Shown: positions 32,092 to 59,105, numbered from the stretch's first letter. The stretch: DNA of 64,000 nucleotides from Candidatus Daviesbacteria bacterium (GCA_028715175.1 JAQUSJ010000001.1:7760-71759); one strand, 5' to 3'. Notes: generated by a model not told the origin, from the letters alone. A program made the numbers and translations.

Positions 32092-32114
32092 CCCTTTGGT
32101 ATAATATCCCATAA

Positions 32115-32201: not shown

Positions 32202-32241
32202 CAAATTTGATCTTCTCTCCAATATCCTATAAAATATTGCG

Positions 32242-39566: not shown

Positions 39567-40673
39567 ATGTCCAAAGTTTTTGCAAATACTCTTTTTGTCT
39601 TAATTTTATTTTTCCTTCTCTTTTTTATTGGTTTACCTGAAACAGTGTGGGCAGGCGCAATCTATTGTACTCCACAAAATGTAGAGGTTGAAACAAACAA
39701 TGATTTTAATACTAAAGTAACCATAAGCACACAAGGCACTGCTATTAGAGATGGCGATAAACTTGCAATGGATATTTTTAATAACAAAGAGAGGGTTAAA
39801 CAATCAGAAGAGGTTACAGTAGAAAATCAAACTGTAGTTTTTAACTTAGGAAAATTAATTCCCGGAACATATTCTTATAATTTATTTCGAGTCGAAACAC
39901 CTCGTTCGCAAACATTATGTCTTGGTCGACAAGATGGAGCTATCTTTAGTGTCGATGAAAAAGGCCAGGGAGGAGAAATAACTGCAAGCAATAATATTGA
40001 ATTCATACCTAGCTCTCCCACCCCAAGAGACATTATTTTTGTTCGTGTAAAAAATCTACCAGAGGATACGGCATATTTGGTAGCCTTTTCGCGCGGCAAA
40101 GAACAAATTAGCCAAACCAGACCTAGCCGATGTTTTATTTCAGATAACCAAGAATTTGCTTTTTATATCGAACCTCTTGAAGCAGGTTACTGGAATGTAG
40201 TCGTCTCTAAAAAAGCCGGACAACCAAATGACGATCAATGCCAGTTCGCTACCGGATCTCCATTAGCTAGTGGAACAATTAGAATTTCTGAAACTGATAT
40301 TGTTATTCCCACTAAACCACCTCAAAAGGCCTCAGCAAAAGGAGATCCTTGTGATGATAAAGAAAGAGGGCCGGCATTTAAGACTGCCATTGGCTGTATT
40401 CATACCAACCCAACAGAACTTATTAAAGATATCCTCACCTTTGTTATTGGTATCTCCGGAGGACTAGCATTTTTAATGATGCTTTTGGGGGCATTTCAGA
40501 TGTTAACCTCTGCTGGAAATCCTGAAACTTTGAATGCAGGTAAAGATAGATTAACCAGTGCAATCATTGGACTTTTGTTTATTGTTTTTGCAATACTACT
40601 ACTACAAATTATTGGAGTTGGTATACTAAGCATACCAGGATTTGGCAAAGGTTTACCAAATAAATTTATATGA
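39567..40673 (+). CDS. secreted protein with C-terminal VirB2/TrbC-like 2-TM pilin-like module
   Basis: C-terminus GAFQMLTSAGNPETLNAGKDRLTSAIIGLLFIVFA is homologous to the five downstream small paralogs. Confidence 0.45.
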   Translation: MSKVFANTLFVLILFFLLFFIGLPETVWAGAIYCTPQNVEVETNNDFNTKVTISTQGTAIRDGDKLAMDIFNNKERVKQSEEVTVENQTVVFNLGKLIPGTYSYNLFRVETPRSQTLCLGRQDGAIFSVDEKGQGGEITASNNIEFIPSSPTPRDIIFVRVKNLPEDTAYLVAFSRGKEQISQTRPSRCFISDNQEFAFYIEPLEAGYWNVVVSKKAGQPNDDQCQFATGSPLASGTIRISETDIVIPTKPPQKASAKGDPCDDKERGPAFKTAIGCIHTNPTELIKDILTFVIGISGGLAFLMMLLGAFQMLTSAGNPETLNAGKDRLTSAIIGLLFIVFAILLLQIIGVGILSIPGFGKGLPNKFI

Positions 40674-40993
40674 ATAAGTTGGCATTAACATTACCCGGAA
40701 CCGGAAATATTATAGACAGCCCTGTTCAAGACAGGTTTCCCGATCTTGGGAGTGTTCTTTCAGGTCTTCTAAATATTACCTTCTATATTGCCGTATTCAT
40801 AACTTTCTACTTTTTCATTTGGGGAGCTTTTGCTTATATTGTGGCTCAAGGCAAAAAAGAAGATTTAGCCAAAGCCAGAAATAGAATTACCTGGTCACTA
40901 ATTGGGCTAATAATAATATTTCTGTCGTATTTTATAGCCAGATTTGTTGCCGAAATTCTCAAGACTAACATCAAAGGAGGGCTACCGTTCTGA
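40670..40993 (+). CDS. VirB2/TrbC-like 2-TM pilin-like protein (paralog 2)
   Basis: WGAFAYIVAQGKKEDLAKARNRITWSLIGL core between two TM helices; ATGA start/stop overlap with the upstream gene. Confidence 0.45.
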   Translation: MNKLALTLPGTGNIIDSPVQDRFPDLGSVLSGLLNITFYIAVFITFYFFIWGAFAYIVAQGKKEDLAKARNRITWSLIGLIIIFLSYFIARFVAEILKTNIKGGLPF

Positions 40994-41061
40994 AAAAATT
41001 TCCGATTCTACTTGCCCGGGTTAACATTGATGAAAAATTTGGCTTTGGAGGAATCACTTCA

Positions 41062-41310
41062 TTGGGGAAAGCAACCAGTGATTTGGTACCCCCTATATTT
41101 TCTATTGCAACAGCACTGGTAGTTATGTATTTCCTGTGGGGGGCTTTAAAATTTTTAATGTCCGGAGCAAACAAAGAAGAAACAGCCGAGGCAAGACAAA
41201 TGATTACCCATGCCATAATAGGGTTTATAATATTAATATTCGCATTTTTTATTTTGCAGTTCTTATTGAACGGTTTATTCAATATAAAGGATTTTCAAAT
41301 AATCAAATGA
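41062..41310 (+). CDS. VirB2/TrbC-like 2-TM pilin-like protein (paralog 3)
   Basis: WGALKFLMSGANKEETAEARQMITHAIIGF core; TTG start. Confidence 0.45.
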   Translation: MGKATSDLVPPIFSIATALVVMYFLWGALKFLMSGANKEETAEARQMITHAIIGFIILIFAFFILQFLLNGLFNIKDFQIIK

Positions 41311-41762
41311 AAATTTTATCTTTACTCATAATATTTTTTACATTTTTGCTTTTAACAAATAACGTTTATGCTCTTGACTGTTCTGGAGCAGATAAAGATA
41401 GAGTTGAGTGTAGATTCGGCACGATTACTCCTCCTTCACCCATAGCGGGTTTTATTGGTGGTGACCAAACAGGCACGGCAGGAATCAGTAAATTTTTATC
41501 AAATGGTGTGGCCCTCATTTACTCTATTGCGGTGGTAATTTTAGTTTTTATGCTCCTTTGGGGATCATTTGAATGGATAATCTCCGAAGGAGATAAAGAA
41601 AAAATCGCTGCCGCCCAAAAAAGAATCCTTAATGCCATTATTGGCATAATTCTTTTTGCCGTTGCTTTTGCCGTTATAAAACTTTTGGGCCAATTTACCG
41701 GTTTTGAATTTTTTGTAGGACAAAATCCACCATCTCTCTTGCCATATGAAAGAACTATATAA
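41307..41762 (+). CDS. VirB2/TrbC-like 2-TM pilin-like protein (paralog 4) with signal peptide
   Basis: WGSFEWIISEGDKEKIAAAQKRILNAIIGI core; ATGA overlap with the upstream gene (start taken at MKILSLL). Confidence 0.45.
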   Translation: MKILSLLIIFFTFLLLTNNVYALDCSGADKDRVECRFGTITPPSPIAGFIGGDQTGTAGISKFLSNGVALIYSIAVVILVFMLLWGSFEWIISEGDKEKIAAAQKRILNAIIGIILFAVAFAVIKLLGQFTGFEFFVGQNPPSLLPYERTI

Positions 41763-41808
41763 CCGCCGCTTGACAAATAAATTTTTGTGTGACTAAAATA
41801 AATTGTAG

Positions 41809-42192
41809 ATGAAAAAATTATTAGCTTTGCCCTCTGCTATTACTGCTTTATCAATACCTGTACTAACATTTGCTGCAGACGAAAAGATAAATATCAGTCC
41901 TCCCCCGTACGGCTATAAAAGCCTTGGCGGCTTTGTTACTAACCTAATCACTATTGCTTTTAGCGTTGCTATCCTGACAGTTTTGGTTATGCTTATCTGG
42001 GGAGCATTTGAATGGATTGTATCCGGAGGTGACAAAGAAGCTGTAGGTAAGGCCAGAAACAGAATTCTCAATGCTCTCATAGGTTTAGCTGTTTTGGCAA
42101 TAGCCTTTGCTCTGGCAACTGTTGGCGCTCAAATTTTAGGTTTCCCAGATATCACAAGCGGCCTCCCTATCCCGACACCGCCTCCACAATAA
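41809..42192 (+). CDS. VirB2/TrbC-like 2-TM pilin-like protein (paralog 5) with signal peptide
   Basis: WGAFEWIVSGGDKEAVGKARNRILNALIGL core. Confidence 0.45.
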   Translation: MKKLLALPSAITALSIPVLTFAADEKINISPPPYGYKSLGGFVTNLITIAFSVAILTVLVMLIWGAFEWIVSGGDKEAVGKARNRILNALIGLAVLAIAFALATVGAQILGFPDITSGLPIPTPPPQ

Positions 42193-42222
42193 ACTTCGTA
42201 AGATTGATCTGCAACGATATTC

Positions 42223-42576
42223 GTGGTAAGTTTAAAGTATATGGGCCCAGACGCTGCAGGTTTAACAGAAATTGAAAGAGTTATCGGTAATGTTATTTCC
42301 GTTATTGTAGGTCTTGGACTTATTGCCATGCTGGTGATGTTAATTTGGTCTGGATTTAAGTTCCTTTTTTCCGGCGGAGACCCCAAAGCTGTGGAGGTTG
42401 CCCGTCTGACATTTGCCTGGGCAATTTTAGGAATTATTTTTATGGCTATTGCCTGGTTAATTTTGCAGCTTATTGCAAGCTTTACCGGATTACCAGTAAC
42501 AGTATTTAATATAAAAAGTCTATGCGGTGACCCGCAAGCAAATTTTCCGTTTTGCAGCCCATCACCTGCCCCTTAA
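42223..42576 (+). CDS. VirB2/TrbC-like 2-TM pilin-like protein (paralog 6)
   Basis: WSGFKFLFSGGDPKAVEVARLTFAWAILGI core. Confidence 0.45.
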   Translation: MVSLKYMGPDAAGLTEIERVIGNVISVIVGLGLIAMLVMLIWSGFKFLFSGGDPKAVEVARLTFAWAILGIIFMAIAWLILQLIASFTGLPVTVFNIKSLCGDPQANFPFCSPSPAP

Positions 42577-42615
42577 AACTTGCAAAACAGGGATGATTTG
42601 TTTTACTGTTAAAGT

Positions 42616-44406
42616 ATGACTGCCTGGAAGTTAGTTGTTAGTTGTTCGTTATTAGTTATTAGTTTATTTTTAGCACCTCTCTCTGCACTGGCTGTATCTT
42701 CTCTCCCTAGCTCAAGCACCTCTGCAACTACAACCTACAACCTACAACCTACAACCTCTTTACCTCCTACCATTCCCCCTACCTCTCCTCTTTATACTGA
42801 TCTTTTGGTCAATAATATGTTCCATACTTTCAGCTGTCTGGCTGTGGGACAATCTGTAATTGGCCAACCATGCTTAACTTATCAGATTACCAAAAACGCC
42901 CAGGGGGCAATCCAAAGCGTGCCTGTTCTTTCTTCGGTAAATTTATCCGGAGGAACTTTAGGCGCTGTTACTTCTGTAATTGGGGCTTTATACATGAATC
43001 CGCCTGTTCGAACTGCTGATTATCTAGCCTCTGTAGGAGAGGGTTTGGGAATAGTTAAACAGGCTCATGCTCAGGGAGTAACCGGATCCGGGGCCAATGT
43101 GCTAAAACCCATTATCAGCTTATGGCAAGTGTCAAGAAATATTTCATATGTCATCATGATCATTATTTTTGTGATCATAGGCTTGATGATTATGTTTAGA
43201 AATAGAATAAATCCACAAACCGTCATTACCGCCCAAACTGCATTACCCGGATTAGTGATTGGTTTAATCTTAATTACTTTCTCTTACTTTTTGGCAGGAC
43301 TGATTTCTGACATGGCCTTTATAGGAACAAACATCGTCGGCTATTACTTTTCTGCTGCCCAAAATTCGCCGTCTGGTTCAACTATACATTGTCCCGATTC
43401 GTCCAGCCTGGTGGATTGCACAGAAAAGGCAAATGTTTTAAGTATCTTCAGCCCGCTGACAGGAATTATTGACAAAAATAATGCTGCTACTATGTTAAGC
43501 AATGTATGGAGTTCGCTGAGCGTAGAAGCCCAACGTTTACTAACAATGCTGGCAATGTTTATAACAGCCCAAACAACCTTACAAAGCACAGAATTTTTAA
43601 AGATGATTCCTAAATTTGGAGAAGCTGTTCAAGCGCTTCTTGTTGGCATTACAGTAGGTGCTACCCTAACAAATCCTACTGCTCTTATTGGACTTGCTCT
43701 AGCCTTTATAGCAACCGCTATATTACTATATTCCATGTTTAAACTATTGCTACGTCTTATAAATAACTATATAACCATTATCTTTTTAACCATCACTGCC
43801 CCTTTCCAATTTTTAGCAGCATCTTTGCCCGGCAGACAGGGAATCGCTACTGGTTGGATTTTAAATATGTTAGCCAATATTTTGGCATTTCCGGCAGTCC
43901 TGGCTGTATTCTATTTTGTGGCTTTTCTTTTGGGACCAAATGTTGAAGCTGTAAAAAAATTACCATTTCAAGTTTCTGATAAAACTGCGGTAACCGGCAT
44001 CTCGGCTTTTCCTCTGCTCGGAGGCTTAGATCTTAACTTTATCAATCTTCTCTTAGCTTTTGGAGCTTTGGTGGCGCTACCTTCTATTCCAGATATTATT
44101 GGTAAAACAGTTGGTAGAGCTTCTCAAGCTGAACAACTGATTGGTCAGGGGATTGGGGCTGGAATTGCCCAAGGTAGAGGCTATGCCGGCCAATTCCAGC
44201 AAGGAGTAGGAGCAGCCAGTAGCCAATTTGCTAGAGCCAGAGGTTTGTTCAATACTCCTGGATATAAAATGCAGTTAGTCCCTGGGACTACGGATCAATA
44301 CCAAATCGTAGAAACATATGAAGCAGGAAGAGGCGCTACTTTTGGAACTCTAAGCAGAAGAGGAATTACCAAGCCACCAAAATTAGAACCAGGTGTCGAA
44401 GAGTAA
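42616..44406 (+). CDS. polytopic membrane protein, VirB6/TrbL-like candidate
   Basis: 596 aa with signal peptide, Ser/Thr/Pro-rich N-terminal region and at least 6 TM helices; positioned after the pilin array as in T4SS loci. Confidence 0.4.
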   Translation: MTAWKLVVSCSLLVISLFLAPLSALAVSSLPSSSTSATTTYNLQPTTSLPPTIPPTSPLYTDLLVNNMFHTFSCLAVGQSVIGQPCLTYQITKNAQGAIQSVPVLSSVNLSGGTLGAVTSVIGALYMNPPVRTADYLASVGEGLGIVKQAHAQGVTGSGANVLKPIISLWQVSRNISYVIMIIIFVIIGLMIMFRNRINPQTVITAQTALPGLVIGLILITFSYFLAGLISDMAFIGTNIVGYYFSAAQNSPSGSTIHCPDSSSLVDCTEKANVLSIFSPLTGIIDKNNAATMLSNVWSSLSVEAQRLLTMLAMFITAQTTLQSTEFLKMIPKFGEAVQALLVGITVGATLTNPTALIGLALAFIATAILLYSMFKLLLRLINNYITIIFLTITAPFQFLAASLPGRQGIATGWILNMLANILAFPAVLAVFYFVAFLLGPNVEAVKKLPFQVSDKTAVTGISAFPLLGGLDLNFINLLLAFGALVALPSIPDIIGKTVGRASQAEQLIGQGIGAGIAQGRGYAGQFQQGVGAASSQFARARGLFNTPGYKMQLVPGTTDQYQIVETYEAGRGATFGTLSRRGITKPPKLEPGVEE

Positions 44407-44433
44407 GAAGACACAAAATAAAGCTCCGGTTTA

Positions 44434-47400
44434 TTAAAGAGCCATCTTATCAAATAACCAACCAGCCCAATCGCGGCCATCATACTTTCTAACCCATTGA
44501 CCATTTTCAGCTACAAACCAGTAATAAGGCTTCCTAAGGAATGAGTAGACTTCTGCTTCAGCCGGATATGCCTGCGCTCCGCCTCCGGGCCCCTTATCCA
44601 GCAACCAATCTACGTAAGCGTTCCAAAACATTCTTGCAATATGCCTGGAAGTCCCGGTATTCTTTTCCTTCTCCAGGGCTATAGCCGGATTAAACCTACC
44701 ATTGGGTAAAAAGACATCTGTTTTTCTTAAATCTAAAGCTCCACCTGCATTTCTCTGATCCGAATACATTGTCCTAACTTTTCTTAATGTATCCCATACT
44801 CTACCAAAATTTTCCAGTAGTATATGAAATACTTCCACTTCTCCCTCAGGCTTCTGAAGAGCTTCAACTAGTTTCTCTCTGATCTTTAACACATCTTCAG
44901 AATTATTGGTTGGCTTCATTAATAAACCTTCATGATGATCCCCTGTCTTAGGATCAGTACCACCAATCAAAGCAAACCATAATATAGTACTGCTATCCAT
45001 CAGATTAATAAATTTAGTGATAGCAAATTGACTGGCTATTCTTTGGTTTGTTAATTCATGAATCTTATCATCCATCATTGAAACCGCTCCCATTACCCCA
45101 TGACGCCCTAAATTACCAGCCATGGTATCTGCGTGCATAGGAGCTACAGAGAGTGCTGCCTTAAGTCTTCTAGCCCATCTGTCAGGCATTTTGGCAGTCA
45201 AAGCTTCAATTTGCAAAGAAAATCTAAAATCACCCCCAAGATCTTCAGTATAATAACCAGTACCCATATGTTCCTTATTACCATCATTAGGCAAAGATCG
45301 CTCCTTGAAAACATTTCTTACCCCAACCCAACCTAAAAGCGACTCTTCAACCGCAGCATCAAAAACAATCCCTTCCAAAGTCATTTGTTCCCCAGCAAAC
45401 TCTTTGACCCGGCACAAAGTGGGATCCAACGTCAGAAGTAAACCAGCAAAAATATCAGCATCTTCTGGCCGTAACTTTCCATCCCTGATTTGTCTGGCTT
45501 GGTCAATTACATAATCAGGCAACAAAGTATGCGTATTGTTGCTTTGATAAGCCCAATAAGTGTGAGCTGTATGCAGGGCTAACCAACTGTCTGCGGCAGT
45601 CGGGACATCCAAATCAACTTCTTCAACAAAAACAAATGTTCCGTCACCCCGTTCTGTTAAAATATATTTAGGATTGTCTTCAAGACCATAATGCAGGATA
45701 AGGTTACCAAGATCTATAAGTTTACGATCCTTTCCTCCGGGTTTATCATAAATAATGAGCTTACCGCTTGTTGCATCAAAATCGCTCTCGCCTAAACCAA
45801 CAGGTTTACCACTTTTATCGTAACCAAAGATAGGCTGACTGTTTTCATCAAAAGCAATAATAGGTAGCCCATTTTGGCTGTAGCCGAAAACATGCGGCCT
45901 TTTTAACTTCATCTGGCTAAGAGCAATTGGCTGAAGTTCAATCATACCGGACTTTAATTCACCATTCTCATCAAAATAATCTAAGTAATTAGCTGCATAA
46001 TCAGCATCAGAAAATTTTGCCGCAAATCCTTTTTCATAAATGGCATCTACCGCCCTTTCAAGTGCTTTCTGTACCATGGCTTCTCTGTATCTAGCTCTAA
46101 AATTAGGGTACCTATACTGATCATTTTCATCCTTACCCTCTACTCTTTCCTTAAACCCTTCTGTTTGCCAAATAGGTGAGTCGTCTCTATATTTCATCCG
46201 TATCCAATTTACAACAGCCATACCGGCTTTTTGAGCCAGATGGGCTGGGATATGATCAAATGTAAGATTTTCTCTGTCCGCAGGATTCAGGCTGTTATAT
46301 AGAGCTTGTTCTGTAGGAGGAAAAGAATCCAGTCGCCTACCTTTAGCTATCTCATCCAAAATCCATCCTTTATGCTGATTCTCGGTAAAACCTTTTCTTC
46401 TCTGCGCAGGCGACCATTGGCTGATATCAGGATCTGAAGCTTTTTGCTCCTTATGATTGTCCTGCCGGAATTTCAAATACTCCCGGACATATTGATTTTT
46501 ACCAACGAAATAAACTGCTCCACCTCTGATAGTTGTTTCGTGAGTTACGCCCTGCATTTGCATAGCTACATCAAAGCTAGTTTCTGAATCGGCATAATAT
46601 TTATCGTAAAACCTCTTATCTTGTCTTTTAATCCGTTTTAACTTCACTAATTTATCAATCAATTTTTCTTTTCTCCCTAAAACTACCGTCCCTGTCCTAA
46701 CTTCCTGCCTAAGTTCATCCATTAGGGTTTGGATTCTGCCTAACTTAACAGAATCCCGTAATTTTCTGGGGAAATTCTCGGGGAGTTTATCAATATCCAA
46801 ACCTTTGTTGCGAACATATTCCTGATAGTTATTTCTGTGAGCATCGCTATTATCAAACCCATCAAACAGGGCCTTCAAAGCCTCGGCAGATTGATGAATA
46901 CCTATCCGCTCCTGATTAGTCTTCGGGTGTACTCTTTGCGCTAAATAAAATTCCCTGTCATCGTCTTCCGCAAAGCTGTCTAAATCATCATCATTCTCTT
47001 TCAGATGTTTATCAAGCTGTTCCAAGCGTACTGCCCTTTTGTAACGCAATTCTGGATCCGAAACAAGATCTACATCACGCCAGTCATAGTCTTTTAAGAC
47101 AATGCCCATGCCTCTTTCTTTTTGTATTCCATAAATTATTGCCCTGATATACTCCTGCACCTGAGTGCGATCTCCAAATTGTCCTCTTGACCCTTGGGCG
47201 TTTAAGGCAAATTCAATCATAGCCAAATTATCAAAACAAAAGGTATGAAATCCAACTCCGCATTCCTCGCCTGAGCGCAGAGCTCTAACCCATCTTTGAG
47301 GTCCTTCGTGCATAGCCATTGCCATTGCACCCTGCTTAGCCCCTTCTTTGTTATAATGCTCGCTATTGTAAAAAGTGTGCCAGAGAAAAGCCCGTCCTTC

Positions 47401-48804: not shown

Positions 48805-49019
48805 AAATTCCTCTCCTTGGGAAATCCATGGCCTATCTCAAGCATAGAACTTCCCAAATCTAACTGTCAAATCTTCTTTTTAGATTTGTTTATCGCTTAT
48901 CGTTAATCGGAAATTTAATATTCGATATACGAAGAGCGATTAGTGTTACAATAAACCATCAACCAATTCTGTGCTTGATTAAATTCTTACAAAATCCTGA
49001 CGGGGTTCAGTTCAAAGGT

Positions 49020-49466
49020 TCAGGACAATCTCTTATTTAAATCTATACTTCTTAGATATTGCAAAAAGTTTGCAGGAGCCATCACCATTATATTAAAATC
49101 CTCTTTTATTTTATCTATCTTAAAATGTTTGGTGTTATAAGAAATTAGATAATTCGCTTTAGCTTTTTTTGCTCCCGCTATAATGTGGGCATCGTCTTGA
49201 TCAACAATATATTCTGAATATTTTACTTTAATTTCTTTTAACTGTTGCTTTAGATATACCTTTTTGAAGCTTCTTTTAAGAAGATTTTTAAGCTCAGTCT
49301 GATCAAGCCCTAATCTATCAGCTACTTCTATTAATTCTTTCTGAGATACATTTGAAATATATAATTTAAGATTAGTTATGCTACTGAGCAAAAGATTAGC
49401 TGCCCCTGATGAAGAAATTAACGAAGAGATGACCACATCTGAGTCAATGAATACCTTTTTAAACAT
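49020..49466 (-). CDS. PIN-domain protein (VapC-like toxin)
   Basis: VFIDSDVVISSL...YLISYNTKHF; acidic residues in PIN positions. Confidence 0.65.
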   Translation of the reverse strand: MFKKVFIDSDVVISSLISSSGAANLLLSSITNLKLYISNVSQKELIEVADRLGLDQTELKNLLKRSFKKVYLKQQLKEIKVKYSEYIVDQDDAHIIAGAKKAKANYLISYNTKHFKIDKIKEDFNIMVMAPANFLQYLRSIDLNKRLS

Positions 49467-49730
49467 TTAACTACTGTTAATCTTAGACCTGATTTTTTTA
49501 ATCTCTGCTTGTATGGTGGGGAGTTGTTTCAGATCTTCCTTTTCAGCCAAATAAAGGTCATAATCCAGTCCGGTGAAAACAAAGGAGATGGAGCTTGCCG
49601 GGACACGATAAACCTTACCGATCTTTTTAGCTATTATCTCGCCCCTTTGAATTAAATCATAAATTGTATTTTTGCTCAGTTGTAGAATATTAGCTACTTG
49701 CTCGGGAGTATATGCTTTAGTGCTAATCAT
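49467..49730 (-). CDS. helix-turn-helix DNA-binding protein (excisionase/MerR-type; antitoxin-like partner of the PIN gene)
   Basis: YTPEQVANILQLSKNTIYDLIQRGEI HTH_17-like; stop abuts the PIN start. Confidence 0.6.
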   Translation of the reverse strand: MISTKAYTPEQVANILQLSKNTIYDLIQRGEIIAKKIGKVYRVPASSISFVFTGLDYDLYLAEKEDLKQLPTIQAEIKKIRSKINSS

Positions 49731-49787
49731 GATTATTTTATACCAAACATTACTAAATTTGTCAATAGGTAATTAAAACCTACAATA

Positions 49788-50696
49788 CTATCCGCATCTT
49801 TTAACTGTCCTACAGCTAGGACAGCTCTGGCCGGCCCTGACAATACAATTTATTGCTTCACCACAAACAGGACAATTCCTACAAAAATCAGGATCTTTAG
49901 TATTTACCCCATCACCCACTACTAAAGAATTCTCTGAAAATACCTGAAAAGCAGTCTTAGGGGGGCAGCTACCAGAGTATGACCCCAACACTTGCTTAAT
50001 AGCCATTTGCGCTTCATCTGTAGAATATAGCCCTGGAATAGAGAAAAACTCTTTTTGGACCATTGTAGCCTGTCTAAGAACCTCTTCTTTCAGTCTTCTA
50101 TCTTCTCCAATTCTGACCATTTCCCATACAGCAGGCGCATCAATTAACTCTTCTAAGGCATGGATCCAAAAATTGCCATGGGTCTTTAAAATCAGCGGGG
50201 TTGCCCTGACCTGATCAAAATTGAAAAAATTTGGCTGGTTCTGGCTAAACTGCGCCAAACCACGGGCAAATTCCAGAGACTGATTCTCATCAAAATCAAA
50301 TAAAATAGCCCGGTTAAATAATCTTTTGAGACCATTCTTATACTCTATCTCGCTGACAATTATTTTTAAGACAGAATATGCTCCAAGATAGGGAGGGCTA
50401 ACCCAGACAATTACTCCCTCATTACGACTGACTGCCCACTCTTCCATAGCAACTACCGCTCTATATTCCAACTGACCCAGGTGACTAGTTTTATCTTCAA
50501 TTGTATCTTTGACCCTGCAATGAGCGGTAGGAGAAAATAACTCTCCGTTTGATCTAACTTCAAAATAATAAGGGTCAGGAACTCTGTGAGTTTCGAGGCT
50601 GTAAGAAGCTATCTCTTCAACAACTTGCTTTTCAGGTTTACCTTGCCAATTTTTGATAAAAGAAGTTATTTCTGGTCGTTCTAGTGATACTGACAT
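49788..50696 (-). CDS. hypothetical protein with C-terminal Cys-rich zinc ribbon
   Basis: CRNCPVCGEAINCIVRAGQSCPSCRTVKRCG at the C-terminus. Confidence 0.35.
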   Translation of the reverse strand: MSVSLERPEITSFIKNWQGKPEKQVVEEIASYSLETHRVPDPYYFEVRSNGELFSPTAHCRVKDTIEDKTSHLGQLEYRAVVAMEEWAVSRNEGVIVWVSPPYLGAYSVLKIIVSEIEYKNGLKRLFNRAILFDFDENQSLEFARGLAQFSQNQPNFFNFDQVRATPLILKTHGNFWIHALEELIDAPAVWEMVRIGEDRRLKEEVLRQATMVQKEFFSIPGLYSTDEAQMAIKQVLGSYSGSCPPKTAFQVFSENSLVVGDGVNTKDPDFCRNCPVCGEAINCIVRAGQSCPSCRTVKRCG

Positions 50697-50756
50697 ATTG
50701 CTCCTGCTCGGGATAGAATCTCGCCGTTAGGCGAAGTGGTCGGTCTCCTGACTTAA

Positions 50757-50838
50757 TCAGCTCTCAGCTTTCAGTCTTCAGCTATCAGACTAAAAATTCT
50801 TGTCTGACAACTGATGACCGACGACTGATGACTGAAAT
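50757..50838. repeat. dispersed imperfect-palindrome repeat element, divergent copy C
   Basis: tcagctctcagctttcagtcttcagctatcagac-taaaaattcttg-gtctgacaactgatgaccgacgactgatgactgaaatc. Confidence 0.45.
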
Positions 50839-51145
50839 CACAGTTGCGGCACAGTCCAGGATTCTCACCTGATTCCCTTTTTAAGAGCGAAGCTCGCAAG
50901 CTCCGCTTATTTCTTCTCCCGCCAGAGGCGGGATGAAATACCACAACGTTAGAATAACAACTCAAAACTCAAATGTCAAAACTCAAAACTAAAACTTAAA
51001 ATCTTAAAATTTTAAAACCTTTGAGATTTAAGATGCAGATTTGCGATTTGAGATCTAAGATTTGAGATTAATATGGATTGCCCCATAATGATCTGTTTTG
51101 TGACTCTTGCCATCATTTTTTTCACGATGTATATAGATAGTATCT

Positions 51146-52165
51146 ATGGAAGAAGTACATCCAATCCCGCAAAATGTGACAAGTTTCCAGTTCAAGCTGG
51201 TTGGGGATATGACCCTAAAGCAATTCGGCTATCTGGCTGCCGGCGCAGGTTTTGCTTATCTGGTTTTTGTCCTTTTCTCGCACGATTATCCAATCATAGC
51301 CTGGCCGATTGTTTTTTCTTCAACCATTTTAGGCATTGCTTTTGCTTTTGTGCCGATTGGATCACGGGCGCTGGACCACTGGTTAGCAGCATTTTTGAAA
51401 GCTGTTTATTCTCCTACTAAAAGAGCCTGGGCGAAAAACGGAAAAACTTACAAAGAAGACCCGTTGTTTGACAGCCGTCTGGTGATGTATCTTGCCGGTA
51501 CTCAAAATGCTCCTCCGGCCAAACCATCTGCTGCAACCATCACTCAAATTGCACGCCCCGCACCTTTACCAACACAAGAGAAGCTGCAAAAAACAGTAGA
51601 CCTGGCTCAAGAGGCACAACAACTGCAAATGAAGATCATCCAGTCGGAGCGGACTTTATCGCAAATTAAGGAACAGGCAACGCAACCCACACCTATACCC
51701 GTTGACTATAGCCAACAAGCCAGTAAGATCTTAACGGATTTAAAAAACCTGGTTAATCAAGCTTCCGAAGTAAAACAGCAAATTAAATCTATCCAGGAAC
51801 CAACAGTTCAACCTCAGGTTCCTATTTCCGAACCTGTCTTCAGAGAAAAAGTCAAAGTAATAGTGCCTGTGAAACCCAAACAAGCACAGATTGCGCTAAC
51901 TACATTTCCAAATGTCATAAACGGTATTGTCAAAGACAGGAACAATAATTATCTGGAAGGCGTAGTGGCAGTTATCTACGACAAAGAGGGCCTGCCTGTC
52001 CGGGCCCTAAAAACAAATAAACTCGGTCAATTTACCGGTTCAACACCGCTGCCTAATAAAACTTATACTTTGGAGCTTGAAAAAGACAATTATACTTTTG
52101 ATGTATTGCAGATTGAATTAACCGGAGAAGTTTTACCGCCTTTAGTGATTACAGCAAAATCATGA
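51146..52165 (+). CDS. PrgI-family (VirB3-like) membrane protein with extended C-terminal region
   Basis: N-terminus IPQNVTSFQFKLVGDMTLKQFGYLAAGAGFAYLVF with two TM helices is typical of the PrgI family preceding VirB4 in Gram-positive T4SS. Confidence 0.5.
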   Translation: MEEVHPIPQNVTSFQFKLVGDMTLKQFGYLAAGAGFAYLVFVLFSHDYPIIAWPIVFSSTILGIAFAFVPIGSRALDHWLAAFLKAVYSPTKRAWAKNGKTYKEDPLFDSRLVMYLAGTQNAPPAKPSAATITQIARPAPLPTQEKLQKTVDLAQEAQQLQMKIIQSERTLSQIKEQATQPTPIPVDYSQQASKILTDLKNLVNQASEVKQQIKSIQEPTVQPQVPISEPVFREKVKVIVPVKPKQAQIALTTFPNVINGIVKDRNNNYLEGVVAVIYDKEGLPVRALKTNKLGQFTGSTPLPNKTYTLELEKDNYTFDVLQIELTGEVLPPLVITAKS

Positions 52166-52932
52166 ATACAACACAGGAACATTTATCTATTTCAGATATT
52201 CGGGACGATATTCTTTTGCTGAAAGACGGGGGCGGGGCGCTTGTTCTGCAAGTCAGCGCTGTTAATTTTGGCTTACTTTCAGACAGGGAACAGGTGGCTA
52301 TCATTTCCGCATTCGCCCAAATGCTTAATTCCTTATCATTCAGCATCCAAATTGTCATCCATTCGGAAAGGCTCAACATCAGCTCTTATCTGAAAATATT
52401 GGATGACGCCAAAAAAGCCCAAAACAACCCGCTGCTTTCACAAATGATTACGGGATATAGACAATTTATCCAAACTACAATCAAAGAAAATGAGGTATTG
52501 GATAAAAGGTTTTATATTGTCATTCCGCTTTTCGCGCTAGAGCTGGGGCTAACTCCATCCAGAGAAAGTTTGGAGGGAAAAATTAAAACAATACTCATAC
52601 CAAGACGGGATCAAATTGTCAGACAGCTAGGCAGAGTCAATCTGAAAGCGATGCATCTGACCAAACAAAAATTGATTGAAGTTTTTTATTATATCTATAA
52701 TGGTCAAGTTGAGGAAAAACCGCCGGGACAAATCGTCAATCCGCAAGAATTAGCAGTTAAATTAAAACAACCCGTTCGACTCGCTGACGCTCGCTCAGGG
52801 CCTTCGGCCGCACAACCAACTTTTAATCCCGCAGCACAACAGCCAACATCACCAATCCCACCTGTGACAGAACCAATAACCACTCAAGGCACAAAAACAC
52901 ATCCTTTTGTAGTGGAGGAGTTAGGAGAATGA
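52162..52932 (+). CDS. VirB4/TcpF/PrgJ-type ATPase, N-terminal domain (separately encoded)
   Basis: LSISDIRDDILLLKDGGGALVLQVSAVNFGLLSDREQVAIISAFAQMLNSLSFSIQIVIHSERL matches the N-terminus of Gram-positive VirB4 homologs; ATGA overlap with the next ORF. Confidence 0.55.
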   Translation: MNTTQEHLSISDIRDDILLLKDGGGALVLQVSAVNFGLLSDREQVAIISAFAQMLNSLSFSIQIVIHSERLNISSYLKILDDAKKAQNNPLLSQMITGYRQFIQTTIKENEVLDKRFYIVIPLFALELGLTPSRESLEGKIKTILIPRRDQIVRQLGRVNLKAMHLTKQKLIEVFYYIYNGQVEEKPPGQIVNPQELAVKLKQPVRLADARSGPSAAQPTFNPAAQQPTSPIPPVTEPITTQGTKTHPFVVEELGE

Positions 52933-54698
52933 AGCTACCAAATTTATTTAGAAAAACAAAAACTCAGGAACAACTGCAACCCCAATTAACCGTTGAGGAT
53001 GTGATTGCTCCGGGCGAAATAGAAGTGGAGTTTAGTCATCTGAAGATAGACAGCCGTTTTTTCCGGACTTATTTTGTATCGGCTTACCCCAGATTTGTTG
53101 AGCCTAACTGGCTTGAACCGCTAATTTCTTTTGACCATTCGCTCCTTGTTTCGATGTTTATTTACCCGTCGCAATCGCAAGGAGTACTGGATGAACTAAA
53201 GCGCAAAGTAGCTGAAATGGAAGCCACGATCCAGACCGATCTTGAACGGGGCAGAGCAGTGGATCCTGCGGTCGAAGTAGCCTTGGAAGATGCACGGAGC
53301 TTACAAGACCAGCTTGTCAGGGGGGTTGAACGATTCTTTCAATTTACCCTCTATATTACTGTGCCGGCAGAGAGCCTGGAAGAGCTGCAAAGCACTTCAA
53401 AACTGGTTGAATCAACACTTGCTTCCCTTTCTATAACCGCCAGACAGGTAACACTGCAAATGGAGGACGGCTTCAAATCCACCTTGCCGCAAGGAAAAGA
53501 TCTTCTAAATCTCGCCCATAACATGGATACCACGTCGCTAGCTACAACTTTCCCGTTTGCCTCGTCTGAACTGACTGCCAACGAGGGAATCATGTACGGC
53601 ATTAACGAGCATAATGGTTCCCTGATTTTATTTGACAGATTCAGTTTAGAAAATGCAAACTCGGTTATTTTCGCCAAAAGCGGAGCCGGCAAATCGTATT
53701 TAGTTAAACTTGAAGCCCTCAGATCTTTAATGTTTGGGACAGAAATAATTGTCATTGACCCGGAGCAGGAATACAAAATTTTGGCTCAGGCTGTTGGCGG
53801 AGAATATATTAATTTCTCCCCTTCGTCTCCGGTAAAAATCAATCCGTTTGATATGTCAGCCGAAGTAACTCCGGGTGAAAATGAACTGGGCCGTAAAATT
53901 CTGTCTTTAACCGGTTTTTTAAAATTGGTTTTGGGAACGCTAAATGCCCAAGAAGCCGCCATACTGGATAGAGCCTTAAAACAAACATACCAGCTCAAAG
54001 GAATCACAGATGATCCTAAAACCCAAACCAATCCGCCAGCTGGCGGACCTCCTTTAATGGAAGATTTATACAAAGTTTTAATCGGCATGGAAGAAGCTGT
54101 AGCTATGGAACTGGCAGCCCGCTTGGAGCGATTTATTAAAGGATCGCTCGCCGGTATTTTCTCCACCCAATCCAATGTTGATATTTCCAACTCGTTTACA
54201 GTATTTTCGGTCCGCGATTTGCCGGACCAGCTAAGACCGCTATCCATCCATATGATCTTAGACTATATATGGACCAAGATCAGAGGCAAACTCAAGAAAA
54301 GACTTTTGATTGTTGATGAAGCATGGTATTTGATGCGGAATCAGGATTCGGCGGATTTTTTGGTAGATATGGCCAAACGTGCCAGGAAATATTATTTAGG
54401 CTTAACTACCATTACGCAAGACGTGGAGGATTTCTTGAGTAACGAGCGGGGCAAAGAAATTATTTCCAATTCATCAATCCAAATTCTCCTGAAACAAGCT
54501 CCTGCTTCAATCGACCTTTTGGCCCATGTTTTTAACCTGTCAGAAGGGGAACAGAGACTTTTGATGTCAGAAGGAATTGGTGAAGGGATATTTTTTGCCG
54601 GCAATACCCATGTGGCAATGAGGGTGGTGGCTTCTCCGGAGGAACATCAATTGATTACCTCAAATCCTGCTGAAATACTGGCAAGACAGAAGATTTAG
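52929..54698 (+). CDS. VirB4/TcpF/PrgJ-type ATPase, C-terminal P-loop domain
   Basis: Walker A IFAKSGAGKSYLV, Walker B LLIVDEAWYLM, typical CagE/TrbE/VirB4 C-terminal region. Confidence 0.75.
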   Translation: MKLPNLFRKTKTQEQLQPQLTVEDVIAPGEIEVEFSHLKIDSRFFRTYFVSAYPRFVEPNWLEPLISFDHSLLVSMFIYPSQSQGVLDELKRKVAEMEATIQTDLERGRAVDPAVEVALEDARSLQDQLVRGVERFFQFTLYITVPAESLEELQSTSKLVESTLASLSITARQVTLQMEDGFKSTLPQGKDLLNLAHNMDTTSLATTFPFASSELTANEGIMYGINEHNGSLILFDRFSLENANSVIFAKSGAGKSYLVKLEALRSLMFGTEIIVIDPEQEYKILAQAVGGEYINFSPSSPVKINPFDMSAEVTPGENELGRKILSLTGFLKLVLGTLNAQEAAILDRALKQTYQLKGITDDPKTQTNPPAGGPPLMEDLYKVLIGMEEAVAMELAARLERFIKGSLAGIFSTQSNVDISNSFTVFSVRDLPDQLRPLSIHMILDYIWTKIRGKLKKRLLIVDEAWYLMRNQDSADFLVDMAKRARKYYLGLTTITQDVEDFLSNERGKEIISNSSIQILLKQAPASIDLLAHVFNLSEGEQRLLMSEGIGEGIFFAGNTHVAMRVVASPEEHQLITSNPAEILARQKI

Positions 54699-54713
54699 TG
54701 ATACCTTAATCTT

Positions 54714-56729
54714 ATGGCCCAATTCTTAAAAGCAAAGTTTTTAAGCGATGCTTTAAAGTGGAAAGCTGATTCGAGGCATGCAGCTGACAAATACTTTGCA
54801 GGTTTAAAGTATGATCCTTTCATCTTTCAACAAGCAAGATTAACTTTCCCCTCATATGATAAACGCTACCCTGTTCCGGCTAATAAAGAATTTGCTGAAA
54901 ACTTTGCCAGAGATTTAGCAAATCCAACCAGAAATAAAGAACTACTGAGAATAATCAACCCAGAGATTCTTACCCCAGAGTTGGAGGCGGCAAATCAACA
55001 GTTTGAGACAGCAGCGCGCCTGGAACAGCAGCAAGTAGCCCAGGCAACCGGCCAACCACCTGTCCAACCATTTTCCTTATCTGCACCACCCAGACCAATG
55101 CAACCGCGCATCATTCCTACTGTGGTAACCCCACCAGTAACCAAGGAAGAAGCAGCTGCCAAAACGCCGACAGAGGTACCTGCTGCCCAACCTCCCCCAG
55201 CCTCAACCCAACTTCCCCCACTGCCACAACAAATATTCAATGCTAATAGAAGCGGAATAGTCGCAAGAATGCGTAACATACAACCTCCCAACTGGCTGAA
55301 AAATCTTGGATCTAGTACGCGAATATTTGCCAGAAAGAATTTGGGCAGGATATTTGACGGCCTTAGAGGGATTATTGGAGGAATAGGCAGAGGAGTAGGA
55401 GGAGCTGTCAGCACAGGATTGGGCGCTACCGCTCCATCCTTAGGTCGAGCATTTCACGGGGGCTTAAATGCTGTTGGAAGAATTACCCAACCAGGAGGAG
55501 TTGATGGAATACCTTCGGGAGGATTAGTCAAATCACCTGTTGGGAAAAGAGGTGCTATAGCTCTACTTTTAGCAATGTTCCTGTTTGTCTTTATATCAGG
55601 TTTTCTGGGAGGATTAACAGAACCCACTTCGTCCCTTAAAGCTGCATCATTACCATCAGGCGGTGGAGATATCAGTAGTTGTAAATTCACCAGATCAGGC
55701 AACTCTCAACTCATCAAAAGCTCTATTCTCTCGGGTTGGATTAGCGGCGTAGCAGCTTCAGCGGGAATCCCACCAGCAGCTTTAGCCAGCATAGCTATGC
55801 ATGAAAATCCGAATTTTACAACCAACGCTGACAATAACCATGACGCTATAACATCTAACCAGTTTTGTAATAAAGGTGTAATGTTTTGCGAGGATGGACA
55901 GGGGCATGTTTTACATACCAAAGCAGACGATGGCATAAACGACCCTTGTACGCCAGCTGAAATTGCGACCGGGAATAGAACCGCTCAAGCAGTTGGATTA
56001 ATGCAAATTCTTGATATCTATAACCCAGGAAAAGATTTATGCAGTATCACGGAAAATTTAGCTATCGCAGCGGCAAAACTCAAAGCAAGCGGGATGACAG
56101 TACAACCCACTCAGGACCAAGTTAACGCTTCTATCAGTGGTTATTACAATGGCTGTACATATGGAAACTACAATTACTGTAATGAGGTCTGGCAAGATCT
56201 ACAAAACTGCCAAGTACAACCCGGAATTCCTCCTGTAGGCGGAGATTTTGCCAGCCAGTTAGTTGATAAAATCAAAAAATCATTGGCTTGCAATGGCTTT
56301 GTGACAATTTTTAATCATGATGCCTGCATAGCTTCAATCCAACCCATTCCACAGCTGTCTGCCCAGGCAATCCATAATTCAGTATTTAATGTAACGGGTA
56401 ATGTTTTACAATGTGTTGGCTTTGCACAAGCAATTGCTACAGATTTAATTGGAACAACCGGAAATGCGATTAACTATATATCAAATAATATCCCAGGTTA
56501 TCGTTTTATTATCCGAGAAAATAATCAAATTCAAGTAGGTGATTTACCTGTTTGGAGTGCGACTACTGATAGACGATACGGGCATATCGCTTATGTAACG
56601 AGTGTTCAAAATAACGGTACATTTCAAGTGGCAGAAGCAAATTTTTGCCCACAAGATTGTGGTAAAGTAGATTTACGAATTGATTCAGTTAATGACGATC
56701 AAATAGTTGGCTGGCTAAGGAAGAGATGA
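54714..56729 (+). CDS. T4SS-associated peptidoglycan hydrolase (PrgK/TcpG-like) with C-terminal CHAP domain
   Basis: CHAP Cys/His (LQCVGFAQA...RYGHIAYV); central region with transglycosylase-like IAMHENPNF; TM helix; Pro-rich linker. Confidence 0.65.
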   Translation: MAQFLKAKFLSDALKWKADSRHAADKYFAGLKYDPFIFQQARLTFPSYDKRYPVPANKEFAENFARDLANPTRNKELLRIINPEILTPELEAANQQFETAARLEQQQVAQATGQPPVQPFSLSAPPRPMQPRIIPTVVTPPVTKEEAAAKTPTEVPAAQPPPASTQLPPLPQQIFNANRSGIVARMRNIQPPNWLKNLGSSTRIFARKNLGRIFDGLRGIIGGIGRGVGGAVSTGLGATAPSLGRAFHGGLNAVGRITQPGGVDGIPSGGLVKSPVGKRGAIALLLAMFLFVFISGFLGGLTEPTSSLKAASLPSGGGDISSCKFTRSGNSQLIKSSILSGWISGVAASAGIPPAALASIAMHENPNFTTNADNNHDAITSNQFCNKGVMFCEDGQGHVLHTKADDGINDPCTPAEIATGNRTAQAVGLMQILDIYNPGKDLCSITENLAIAAAKLKASGMTVQPTQDQVNASISGYYNGCTYGNYNYCNEVWQDLQNCQVQPGIPPVGGDFASQLVDKIKKSLACNGFVTIFNHDACIASIQPIPQLSAQAIHNSVFNVTGNVLQCVGFAQAIATDLIGTTGNAINYISNNIPGYRFIIRENNQIQVGDLPVWSATTDRRYGHIAYVTSVQNNGTFQVAEANFCPQDCGKVDLRIDSVNDDQIVGWLRKR

Positions 56730-57442
56730 TTAATAAATTTATTGTCTTAATTATTGGCGTGTTAGTAATAGCAATTATCTTCAGCTTTCTAGTGCTCACT
56801 TTTCCCAATAAAAAACCAACCCAGATTCCACCAATCCTAACCATGCCAACCCCACAACCAACAATGGATTCTCAAACATCTGTTCCAGCTCAACCCTTAG
56901 CAATTATCTCATCTTATCCGGAAAATAATACTCAAAATATCCCTCCAAATACCACTTTGAGCTTTACATTTAACAATGATATTAATGTTGATCTAATATC
57001 AGTTAAATTTAACCCTGAAGCACAATTTAATCAAACTGTTGTCACAAAATTATTATTAATAAAACCAAAAACAGAACTTAAACCCAGTACTAAATATATT
57101 GTTGAGGTCTTCGGTAAAGGTATGCCTACATCTTACTCAATTCAGTTCCAAACGGCCGCTCAGAATCCAACAGGAACTTCTCCAAACGCAGAAGGAATAA
57201 AACAAATAGACGATACCTTAAGACGAGTACAGCCTGATGCATATCTGGCTAATAAACTTCCCTTTTCAACAAGTGATTTCAGCGCCAGTTCGGCCATCAA
57301 ATCTTCAACTAATAATTTATATTTTGTAATTGTATTACAAGGACCTGATAAAACCAGTTCTAAAAACGCATTTTTAGACTGGTTAAGATCGCTTCAGTTA
57401 ACAGAAGCCCAAATCCAGGGATTGGATATTGAATACCAATGA
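56726..57442 (+). CDS. secreted Ig-like (SbsA_Ig-type) domain protein
   Basis: Signal anchor; beta-rich domain with TLSFTFNNDINVD pattern. Confidence 0.4.
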   Translation: MINKFIVLIIGVLVIAIIFSFLVLTFPNKKPTQIPPILTMPTPQPTMDSQTSVPAQPLAIISSYPENNTQNIPPNTTLSFTFNNDINVDLISVKFNPEAQFNQTVVTKLLLIKPKTELKPSTKYIVEVFGKGMPTSYSIQFQTAAQNPTGTSPNAEGIKQIDDTLRRVQPDAYLANKLPFSTSDFSASSAIKSSTNNLYFVIVLQGPDKTSSKNAFLDWLRSLQLTEAQIQGLDIEYQ

Positions 57443-57903
57443 AAAGAAAAATTCTTATAGTGGTGGCTATTACTGGAGCTGTCTTGATCCTAATTTCTCA
57501 AAAAGATTTATATTCTAAATTTATCCCTGCTGCAAGTAATGATTCTCCTCAACCGGAGCCTGTCGAACAAACTGTGTCTGTAAACGACAAGCCAACCATT
57601 GTTTCTACTAAACCGGATCCGCTGGAAGAAACTATTGTGGCTGCTACAGATACCATAGAGATTACTTTTAACAGGCCCTTGGAAAACGTGGGAGAGTTTA
57701 AAGTCAGGATCGAACCAGAAATAGACTATAAAGTTGAACTCTCAAACGATAGAAGAACAGCCAAAATAATACCCATAAAACCATACCAGCTGGGCACTAC
57801 TTATACATTATTCATCGGCACTGAAACTAAATTTGACGGAATAGGCAGATGGGGGGAAGAGAAAATCTATCATTTTAGGACCATCAAATACACTGGTGTG
57901 TAA
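57439..57903 (+). CDS. secreted Ig-like domain protein
   Basis: Signal anchor; IEITFNRPLENVGEFKVRIEP Ig-like motif; 4-nt overlap with the upstream gene. Confidence 0.4.
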   Translation: MKRKILIVVAITGAVLILISQKDLYSKFIPAASNDSPQPEPVEQTVSVNDKPTIVSTKPDPLEETIVAATDTIEITFNRPLENVGEFKVRIEPEIDYKVELSNDRRTAKIIPIKPYQLGTTYTLFIGTETKFDGIGRWGEEKIYHFRTIKYTGV

Positions 57904-57919
57904 AACAGCTCTAGAATTG

Positions 57920-59023: not shown

Positions 59024-59026
59024 AAT

Positions 59027-59105
59027 AGTCGTCGGCTTTCGGTCTTCAGCTATCAGACTTCAAAAATTTTGTCTGACGGCTGACGTCTGATAACTGATAG
59101 CTACT
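59027..59105. repeat. dispersed imperfect-palindrome repeat element, copy B (between dnaN start and upstream gene)
   Basis: agtcgtcggctttcggtcttcagctatcagac-ttcaaaaattttg-gtctgacggctgacgtctgataactgatagct. Confidence 0.5.

Follow-up and report, generated by a model that had tools for sequence, protein, structure and literature searches.

The 64,000-nucleotide stretch of a Candidatus Daviesbacteria genome analysed here (Microgenomatia, candidate phyla radiation, CPR), hereafter the window, carries at positions 39567-57903 a type IV secretion system (T4SS) locus that ends directly before dnaN. We conclude that this locus is very probably a chromosomal, pilus-bearing T4SS of the Patescibacteria kind, fixed beside the replication origin oriC, and not a mobile element. 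Besides five VirB2-like pilins, its machine genes encode a polytopic membrane protein, proteins resembling PrgI/VirB3 and TrsD/TraC, VirB4, a hydrolase with a CHAP domain and two Ig-like proteins anchored in the membrane. Synteny, nucleotide composition and profile results support a Gram-positive-type (MPF_FATA-like) T4SS rather than an intact integrated conjugative element (ICE). The genes fall into three transcription blocks. The first comprises the five Sec-type VirB2-like pilins and the polytopic membrane protein; the second, on the opposite strand, comprises a zinc-ribbon protein, an inserted PIN/HTH toxin-antitoxin (TA) pair and a giant cytoplasmic protein; and the third runs from PrgI/VirB3 through the TrsD-like protein, VirB4, the CHAP hydrolase and the two anchored Ig-like proteins up to dnaN. 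Components were called by Pfam and NCBIfam profile searches against curated cut-offs and by profile searches of the PDB. The features on which the analysis rests are given below (lengths in amino acids, aa; TM, transmembrane; ORF, open reading frame).

39567-40673, + strand: long pilin, 368 aa (PF18895 4.8e-11, residues 281-349)
40670-40993, + strand: VirB2-like pilin paralog 2, 107 aa (PF18895 1.3e-8; two TM spans)
41307-41762, + strand: VirB2-like pilin paralog 3 (mechanical ORF from 41136; PF18895 1.4e-9)
41809-42192, + strand: VirB2-like pilin paralog 4, 127 aa (PF18895 1.1e-6, 29.1 bits)
42223-42576, + strand: VirB2-like pilin paralog 5, 117 aa (PF18895 3.9e-10; weak TrbC/VirB2 match)
42616-44406, + strand: polytopic membrane protein in the VirB6 position, 596 aa (signal-like N-terminus, at least 6 hydrophobic spans)
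44434-48804, - strand: giant cytoplasmic protein, 1456 aa (convergent with the VirB6-position gene)
49020-49466, - strand: PIN-domain toxin, 148 aa (PIN_3 9.4e-9)
49467-49730, - strand: HTH_17 antitoxin-like protein, 87 aa (HTH_17 1.3e-12)
49788-50696, - strand: Cys-rich cytoplasmic protein, 302 aa (9 Cys, tail CxxCxxC...CxxC; divergent from PrgI)
51146-52165, + strand: PrgI/VirB3-like membrane protein, 339 aa (PF12666 3.5e-8, residues 6-94, 34.3 bits against a cut-off of 27)
52162-52932, + strand: TrsD/TraC-like protein, 256 aa (TrsD 2e-7 and VirB4_plasma 4.7e-8, both below curated cut-offs)
52929-54698, + strand: VirB4 ATPase of CD1110 / MPF_FATA type, 589 aa (NF045971 393.5 bits against a cut-off of 325)
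54714-56729, + strand: bitopic cell-wall hydrolase, 671 aa (CHAP 2.6e-12, 47.5 bits against a cut-off of 26)
56726-57442, + strand: Big_5 Ig-like surface protein, TM-anchored, 238 aa (Big_5 1e-7; N-terminal TM span)
57439-57903, + strand: Big_5 Ig-like surface protein, TM-anchored, 154 aa (Big_5 1.8e-8; last gene before dnaN)
57920-61114, - strand: origin region with dnaN, a TM-anchored Hjc-like endonuclease, dnaA and DnaA-box clusters (Pfam, DnaA boxes, GC skew)
57920-59023, - strand: dnaN (Pfam)
59734-61101, - strand: dnaA (Pfam)
5177-7519, - strand: VirD4-like coupling-protein homolog, 780 aa (TrwB_AAD_bind 22.4 bits against a cut-off of 20.5)

Placement beside the replication origin

An earlier reading made from the DNA sequence alone (the sequence-only reading) had proposed a chromosomally fixed secretion apparatus next to the origin, and the ORFs do lie at the coordinates it gave. 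The origin placement is borne out by the cumulative GC-skew minimum at 58-60 kb and by the DnaA boxes: perfect TTATCCACA boxes occur just three times in the 64 kb, at 59549, 59699 and 61094, on both sides of dnaA, and the box clusters extend over 59549-59727 and 61061-61114. The locus does adjoin dnaN as proposed, although the gap (57904-57919) is 16 nt and not 17 nt; the DnaA-box cluster follows ~1.6 kb from the locus end, and rnpA and yidC are found downstream of dnaA. Between dnaN and dnaA, 59101-59556 encodes a protein of 151 aa that combines an N-terminal TM span with a nuclease domain like that of archaeal Holliday junction resolvases (PF10107, 1.1e-8). The gene for this Hjc-like protein abuts the perfect DnaA box at 59549, and the protein is 70-83% identical across Daviesbacteria loci, above DnaA.

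All window proteins were mapped onto 80 related loci from species-representative genomes (related loci are cited by L number). dnaN/dnaA lies less than 6 kb from VirB4 in 53 of the 56 loci that have at least 7 kb of downstream flank, the TrsD-like gene is directly 5' of VirB4 in 65/68 loci, and PrgI is upstream in 66/68; where the flank suffices, the pilin array and the polytopic protein are found 4-7 kb further upstream. The gene for the 154-aa Ig-like protein is kept beside dnaN in L001, L003-L006, L008 and L083. In composition the locus is indistinguishable from the flanking core genes, with a GC content of 0.411 versus 0.409 for the flanking housekeeping genes and a correlation in relative synonymous codon usage of r = 0.85. 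VirB4 shows 79-84% identity versus 64-76% for DnaA/DnaN in the same loci (L001, L003, L004 and L005), which suggests that the secretion ATPase is under unusually strong constraint. Its homologs form more than 100 clusters that are 82-90% identical, and the closest source-named ones are mostly from Daviesbacteria, with a few from Microgenomates, Woesebacteria and the Patescibacteria group; an exact-match look-up of the window VirB4 returned no record. Many metagenome-assembled genome (MAG) records with a Microgenomatia-type locus (L001, L007, L012, L013, L021 and others) are titled 'uncultured Gammaproteobacteria' or 'Pseudomonadales', one 'Methanoperedens' and one 'Nevskiaceae'; these labels are evidently wrong or placeholders.

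The synteny, native composition, VirB4 conservation, relaxase-free window and core flanks (SpoIID, sigma-70, DnaG and SmpB) therefore argue for an anciently fixed chromosomal system and against an ICE, as the sequence-only reading had it. The adjacency to the origin is an ancestral, conserved arrangement; that it brings a gene-dosage benefit is an idea from the literature and speculation here.

The VirD4-like gene lies apart, ~32 kb before the first pilin gene and ~44 kb from PrgI. Its product matches SXT_TraD (1e-13) and CD1115 (7e-9), both below their cut-offs, and TraG-D_C weakly, and in the PDB it matches TrwB (9e-6) and DotL; the VirD4/TraG-like ATPase of the sequence-only reading stands only as a P-loop protein resembling a type IV coupling protein (T4CP). 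Homologs of ~730 aa are encoded inside the locus, on the minus strand and divergent from PrgI, in L031, L035, L041 and L045 (at ~5.5-7.8 kb) and in L042 (at 1.0-3.2 kb). These loci are of Gottesman- or Woesebacteria type, with VirD4 between a giant ORF and PrgI, and they therefore tie the VirD4-like family to this T4SS.

The locus could also be read as an ICE, intact or decaying, that lies by chance beside dnaN and conjugates DNA. VirB4 belongs to the CD1110 family, which is typical of Firmicutes ICEs and plasmids, a T4CP homolog is present, TA modules are embedded in the locus, and a tyrosine recombinase (3305-4168) adjoins a tRNA-Ile(TAT) gene (4634-4705) and the VirD4 gene. The recombinase, however, has XerC/D-type architecture and is 35 kb distant, while the origin-side gene order is shared across several Microgenomatia lineages, the composition equals that of core genes and VirB4 is more conserved than DnaA. 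A Pfam search of all window ORFs of at least 100 aa matched no relaxase family, in agreement with the sequence-only reading, and the MOB relaxase and oriT of an ICE were not found within the window. ICE boundaries were not seen either, since the flanks, marked by SpoIID and dnaN, are conserved and native in composition, although no explicit repeat search was made. Relaxases are present in just 103/3,035 Patescibacteria genomes (PMC12102498). We consider an ICE to be a highly improbable explanation of the locus.

Components of the secretion machine

The pilin-like array consists of five consecutive genes that all exceed the cut-off of the T4SS_pilin family (PF18895; 29-43 bits versus 26.6), as the sequence-only reading had anticipated, and the paralogs share 23-38% pairwise identity. 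The long pilin is composed of a signal peptide, a Cys-containing extracellular N-domain of ~250 aa and a C-terminal VirB2-like hairpin, with TM spans; at the same position, long pilins of 382 aa, 310 aa and 548 aa are found in L081, L083 and L085, respectively. Paralog 3 probably starts at ATG 41307, which would provide a signal peptide, rather than at the mechanical GTG 41136. In L081 a bAvd-like gene (19551-19937) is inserted in the pilin array, and a 351-aa Fic-domain protein (16127-17182), for which the window has no equivalent, is encoded between the array and the VirB6-position gene. In other systems, Fic proteins count among the classical effectors of T4SSs.

The family of the 596-aa protein is positioned directly downstream of the pilin array in 21 loci. 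The sequence-only reading had called this protein VirB6/TrbL-like, and its polytopic character is supported by topology and position; the VirB6/TrbL identity could not be verified by sequence, the tests being negative or marginal. No match was found in Pfam, NCBIfam or the PDB, or in plasmids by tblastn, hhalign against PrgH of pCF10 gave a probability of 0.06%, and a TrbL match was observed in 1/13 relatives, at 0.0015. Residues 147-223, which hold the first two TM spans, are weakly similar to the TrbC/VirB2 hairpin (E = 0.027; 0.0023 in a relative), a hint that the protein starts with a pilin-like module.

The PrgI/VirB3-like protein, assigned as such before and now placed above the PF12666 cut-off, has a C-terminal beta-sandwich-like extension with a weak CarboxypepD_reg match. 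Between it and VirB4 lies the gene for the 256-aa TrsD/TraC-like protein. On the Mycoplasma-ICE VirB4 profile (VirB4_plasma, 894 positions) this protein covers 132-292 and the 589-aa VirB4 covers 281-893. TraC_F_IV (PF11130, the TraC N-terminal domain) is matched weakly by 17/39 members of the 256-aa family, PF26593 TraC-like is the precomputed label on its orthologs, and the two genes are fused into a single ORF of 814 aa in L025 (390-2834) and of 834 aa in L046 (1877-4381). Because of the profile tiling, the TraC-like matches and these fusions, we conclude from the sequences that the 256-aa gene and the short VirB4 are a split VirB4, of which the 256-aa protein represents the N-terminal part; an hhalign comparison of the TrsD-like family with that of the 589-aa VirB4 gave no significant result.

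VirB4 itself had been described as a VirB4/TcpF-type ATPase, of which the VirB4 assignment was upheld and the TcpF type was not (CD1110, 393 bits; TcpF, 24 bits). The closest curated family is CD1110 (C. difficile CTn2 / pCF10 PrgJ type), an assignment based on profiles. In Pfam the protein matches the TraG P-loop (PF19044) and CagE_TrbE_VirB (PF03135), 90 bits, and the family profile finds Thermoanaerobacter VirB4 (4AG5, 9e-65) as its best match in the PDB, with TrwK reaching only 5e-7. In L022, L068 and L077 the VirB4 ORF reaches 921-1073 aa through a long C-terminal extension.

The hydrolase directly 3' of VirB4 is composed of a cytoplasmic N-part, a TM span (280-298), a Cys-rich middle and a C-terminal CHAP domain, and it finds CHAP and PcsB matches in the PDB. 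It had been read as a PrgK-like enzyme combining CHAP and transglycosylase domains. The CHAP half is confirmed; for the transglycosylase half only a GLMQI-like motif was seen, and the SLT profile was unmatched in a relaxed Pfam scan of residues 301-560. BLASTP against PrgK of pCF10 aligned the CHAP His motif solely, with the transglycosylase half unmatched. The hydrolase is PrgK-like in position and architecture. Both small proteins that follow contain Big_5, in line with the two Ig-like surface proteins proposed earlier, and the 238-aa protein occupies the PrgL slot of the pCF10 gene order. A promoter and terminator scan showed no enrichment over shuffles.

The giant protein and the gap before PrgI

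The 1456-aa protein, which is 100% identical to NCBI entry PHE48_00375 from a Candidatus Daviesbacteria MAG, had been taken for an orphan and is instead a positionally conserved locus member whose family numbers at least 67 clusters. These came from a full scan that covered 1.84 billion representatives, all 67 at E <= 1e-3 and 46 of them at <= 1e-30. The lengths are mostly 1.2-1.9 kaa, with few fragments, the conserved core is formed by the C-terminal ~400 residues, and all members with an examined contig or source name are hypothetical proteins of Daviesbacteria. The gene is convergent with the VirB6-position gene and positioned between it and PrgI in all contexts examined (the window, L002, L081, L083/84 and L085), and this position is kept even at 24-28% identity; in L082 only the convergent ~620-aa neighbour of the giant gene is visible. 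The giant protein evolves much faster than the secretion machine, with an identity within the family of 24-48% versus 69-84% for VirB4.

Neither a signal peptide nor a TM span is predicted in the giant protein. No match was found to Pfam (20 members searched) or to PDB sequences, or by a word-indexed search with the family alignment, and when the large ORFs from the 80 loci were searched iteratively with a family hidden Markov model, L002 alone was recruited. AlphaFold2 modelled the C-terminal domain with pLDDT 91.2 and pTM 0.89 from a 70-sequence alignment, while a 21-sequence alignment gave an unusable model (pLDDT 61); the modelled domain, which contains invariant Tyr/Gln/Lys/Arg residues, finds no match among solved folds. 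The giant proteins at the same position in L004 and L005 are remote homologs through their middle region (hhalign probability 96.7%). In L031, L035, L041 and L045, VirD4 is followed by a giant ORF on the same strand (1209-1365 aa) without similarity to that of the window, and hhalign detected no similarity between the window protein and the giants that occupy its position in Curtiss-, Gottesman- and Woesebacteria; the giants of other Microgenomatia families are therefore positional analogues only.

It is tempting to view the giant protein not as a passenger but as a functional partner dedicated to the Microgenomatia T4SS, either an effector that is translocated or a cytoplasmic factor that processes substrates in place of the missing relaxosome. 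The fixed locus position, the cytoplasmic character, the fast evolution and the confidently modelled C-terminal domain would fit such a role, as would the unrelated-looking giant ORF that other Microgenomatia hold directly downstream of their in-locus VirD4, but we regard the proposal as tentative and rather doubtful. Among the proteins of the locus the giant is the most plausible candidate for a substrate or cytoplasmic partner. Neither its family nor the zinc-ribbon protein is mentioned in the Patescibacteria T4SS literature covered, and the giant is the only unreported piece of the locus.

The sequence-only reading had treated the PIN/HTH pair and the Cys-rich protein alike as genes embedded in the locus, which proved apt for the former and not for the latter. 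The 302-aa Cys-rich protein has a C-terminal zinc-ribbon-like tail and an ortholog in L001 that is 51% identical. Proteins at the same position in L001, L002, L005 and L008 show short C-terminal Cys-rich matches in pairs (L001-L002 and L005-L008), and the L081 counterpart has a Cys-rich tail by inspection; as judged from these comparisons, the protein is positionally conserved. The PIN/HTH pair looks like a genuine insertion, with a homolog in 0/80 related loci and a PIN gene GC content of 0.295 versus 0.41 for the locus, and it is probably local. The equivalent gap in L081 (3809-9804; Daviesbacteria GCA_964547465.1) contains at least three PIN/Phd-type modules and AAA_14/DUF4143 genes, with four PIN-domain genes in all, two of which have adjacent PhdYeFM antitoxins. 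The absence of the pair from the 80 loci, the low GC content of the PIN gene and the modules in the L081 gap together mark the space that separates the giant gene from PrgI as a TA insertion hotspot.

Elsewhere in the window, a 178-aa protein encoded at 1862-2398, near the XerC/D-like recombinase and tRNA-Ile(TAT), matches the Pycsar effector TM domain (PycTM, 4.1e-10) and may belong to an anti-phage system or be left over from one. A cluster at 21730-23844 encodes a SHOCT-domain protein, an HNH endonuclease and a 23S-rRNA-intervening-sequence/bAvd-like protein. At 28364-32202, a stretch of 4 kb contains six tRNA genes, four for Ser and two for Arg, around NUDIX, FtsJ-like and major facilitator superfamily (MFS) genes; a 403-aa ORF after tRNA-Ser, considered as an integrase, was ruled out and is an MFS transporter.

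Predicted function and relation to known systems

VirB4 has been found in 2,417/3,035 Patescibacteria genomes, where its sequences group as one monophyletic clade inside MPF_FATA (Quinonero-Coronel et al. 2025, PMC12102498). Its reported associates are PrgI/VirB3, TrsD, VirB6, VirB1-like enzymes and arrays of 2-11 VirB2 pilins with a mean identity of 25%, the arrays being commonest in Microgenomatia and Saccharimonadia; relaxases are almost lacking, T4CPs are mostly unlinked, and the system is found near dnaA/dnaN, rnpA and rpmH in Microgenomatia and Paceibacteria (PMC12102498). Transposon sequencing showed that Southlakia epibionticum cannot grow epibiotically without the homologous cluster SEML1_0006-0019 (Wang et al. 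2023, PMC10633639), a requirement known from this organism only. The system is summarised in a 2025 review (PMC12857230) and a perspective (PMC11665869). Since PMC12102498, PMC10633639 and PMC12857230 describe the same system, the interpretation in the sequence-only reading is right and the finding is already known. The T4SS of the window probably has a role in host interaction.

The following mechanism is modelled on pCF10-type systems and Southlakia genetics. VirB4 and its split N-domain protein would dock on PrgI/VirB3 and the polytopic protein to form a membrane translocon, the CHAP enzyme would open the peptidoglycan, and the Sec-exported divergent pilins would assemble into a pilus or conduit to the host cell, with the long pilin and the Ig-like proteins possibly contributing adhesin, stalk or scaffold parts. 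The remote VirD4-like ATPase is predicted to recruit substrates into the channel. Since no relaxase was found, the cargo is most likely protein and not conjugative DNA, and we infer that protein export is the most likely activity, with import of host molecules and pure adhesion as live alternatives.

As an uptake machine, the T4SS would import DNA, nucleotides or other host molecules for a cell unable to make its building blocks, for which the H. pylori ComB and archaeal Ced systems provide precedents. VirB4 and VirD4 match the profile of the archaeal DNA-import protein CedB (8e-15 and 6e-7), both weakly and far below the cut-off, and these matches reflect generic P-loop similarity, the CD1110 match being vastly stronger. 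The absence of a relaxase is compatible with uptake, and the idea of import has been raised (PMC11665869), but no component of DNA-binding or nuclease type was recognised among the locus proteins, and in Southlakia deletion of comEC ends competence with viability unaffected, whereas the T4SS is essential (PMC12857230), so that DNA uptake for transformation runs via ComEC. On balance uptake seems unlikely. Still less likely is a machine in which VirB4 only assembles variable pilins for host attachment and nothing is translocated. Five divergent pilins, including the long one with its extracellular domain, the Ig-like surface proteins and a T4CP that is encoded apart from the locus here and dispensable in Southlakia (PMC12102498) would all suit a purely adhesive pilus. 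A T4CP homolog is nevertheless retained, and encoded in the locus in other Microgenomatia, the conserved cytoplasmic giant and zinc-ribbon proteins have no obvious role in pilus assembly, and type IV pili already give adhesion in the Saccharibacteria studied (PMC12857230).

Several points weigh against a fixed T4SS that exports protein to a host. The VirB6 homology of the 596-aa protein is argued from position and topology and not demonstrated by sequence, a VirB8-like component was not identified in the locus, and nothing here supports secretion of the giant protein. The relaxase search covers the 64-kb window of a 743,708-bp contig, and a relaxase may lie elsewhere. The role of the Patescibacteria T4SS has been called 'completely unknown' (PMC11665869), the T4CP of Southlakia is non-essential (PMC12102498), and host dependence is itself inferred here, as no Daviesbacteria have been cultured.

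Few machines have been shown to be essential for the CPR epibiotic lifestyle, and the Patescibacteria T4SS is among them. To this picture the window adds nothing categorically new, but it is a clean Microgenomatia example that offers four leads: a conserved polytopic protein that fills the VirB6 slot in a class in which VirB6 is reported to be scarce, direct evidence for TrsD and a short VirB4 as a split VirB4, a locus-specific giant family of unrecognised fold as a candidate substrate or partner, and the space between the giant gene and PrgI as a TA insertion hotspot.

The gene order is collinear with that of pCF10 from Enterococcus faecalis, the MPF_FATA prototype, which runs PrgI - PrgJ (VirB4, CD1110 family) - PrgK - PrgL. 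The two systems share a bitopic hydrolase with a C-terminal CHAP domain followed by a small TM-anchored protein, as well as a monoderm organisation with no VirB7/9/10. Only pCF10 has a relaxase (PcfG), MobC, a linked T4CP (PcfC) and LPXTG adhesins, and it has no pilins; its VirB4 is one 796-aa protein, whereas that of the window is split into 256 aa and 589 aa, its PrgH is unlike the 596-aa protein, and its PrgK shares just the CHAP motif with the window hydrolase. For the Mycoplasma ICE T4SS, the 256-aa protein and VirB4 tile the Mbov_0397-family profile with scores far below the curated cut-offs, and the long pilin weakly matches the Mbov_0395 pilin-like profile (8.5e-4, far below the cut-off); unlike the window locus, the Mycoplasma systems are mobile ICEs that encode integration functions of their own. 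Tandem divergent VirB2 paralogs are also found in the host-interaction T4SSs (VirB) of Bartonella and Anaplasma (an analogy from PMC12102498), but these are MPF_T systems of the diderm type that have VirB7-B11 and known effectors, and homology is limited to the VirB2 and VirB4 folds.

The closest likeness is to the Patescibacteria T4SS clade, with which the locus shares an MPF_FATA-type VirB4, PrgI/VirB3, a TrsD-like protein adjoining VirB4, a divergent VirB2-like array (here of five), a hydrolase directly 3' of VirB4, the lack of a relaxase (in the window), a distant T4CP and proximity to dnaA/dnaN. It departs from the published description (PMC12102498) in that Microgenomatia VirB6 homologs are there 'scarce', whereas here the pilins are followed by a polytopic protein that is conserved, and in that 22.6% of the detected Microgenomatia VirB3 homologs are there near virB4, whereas here PrgI is upstream in nearly all related loci. 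The opposite-strand giant family and the zinc-ribbon protein are further differences from that description.

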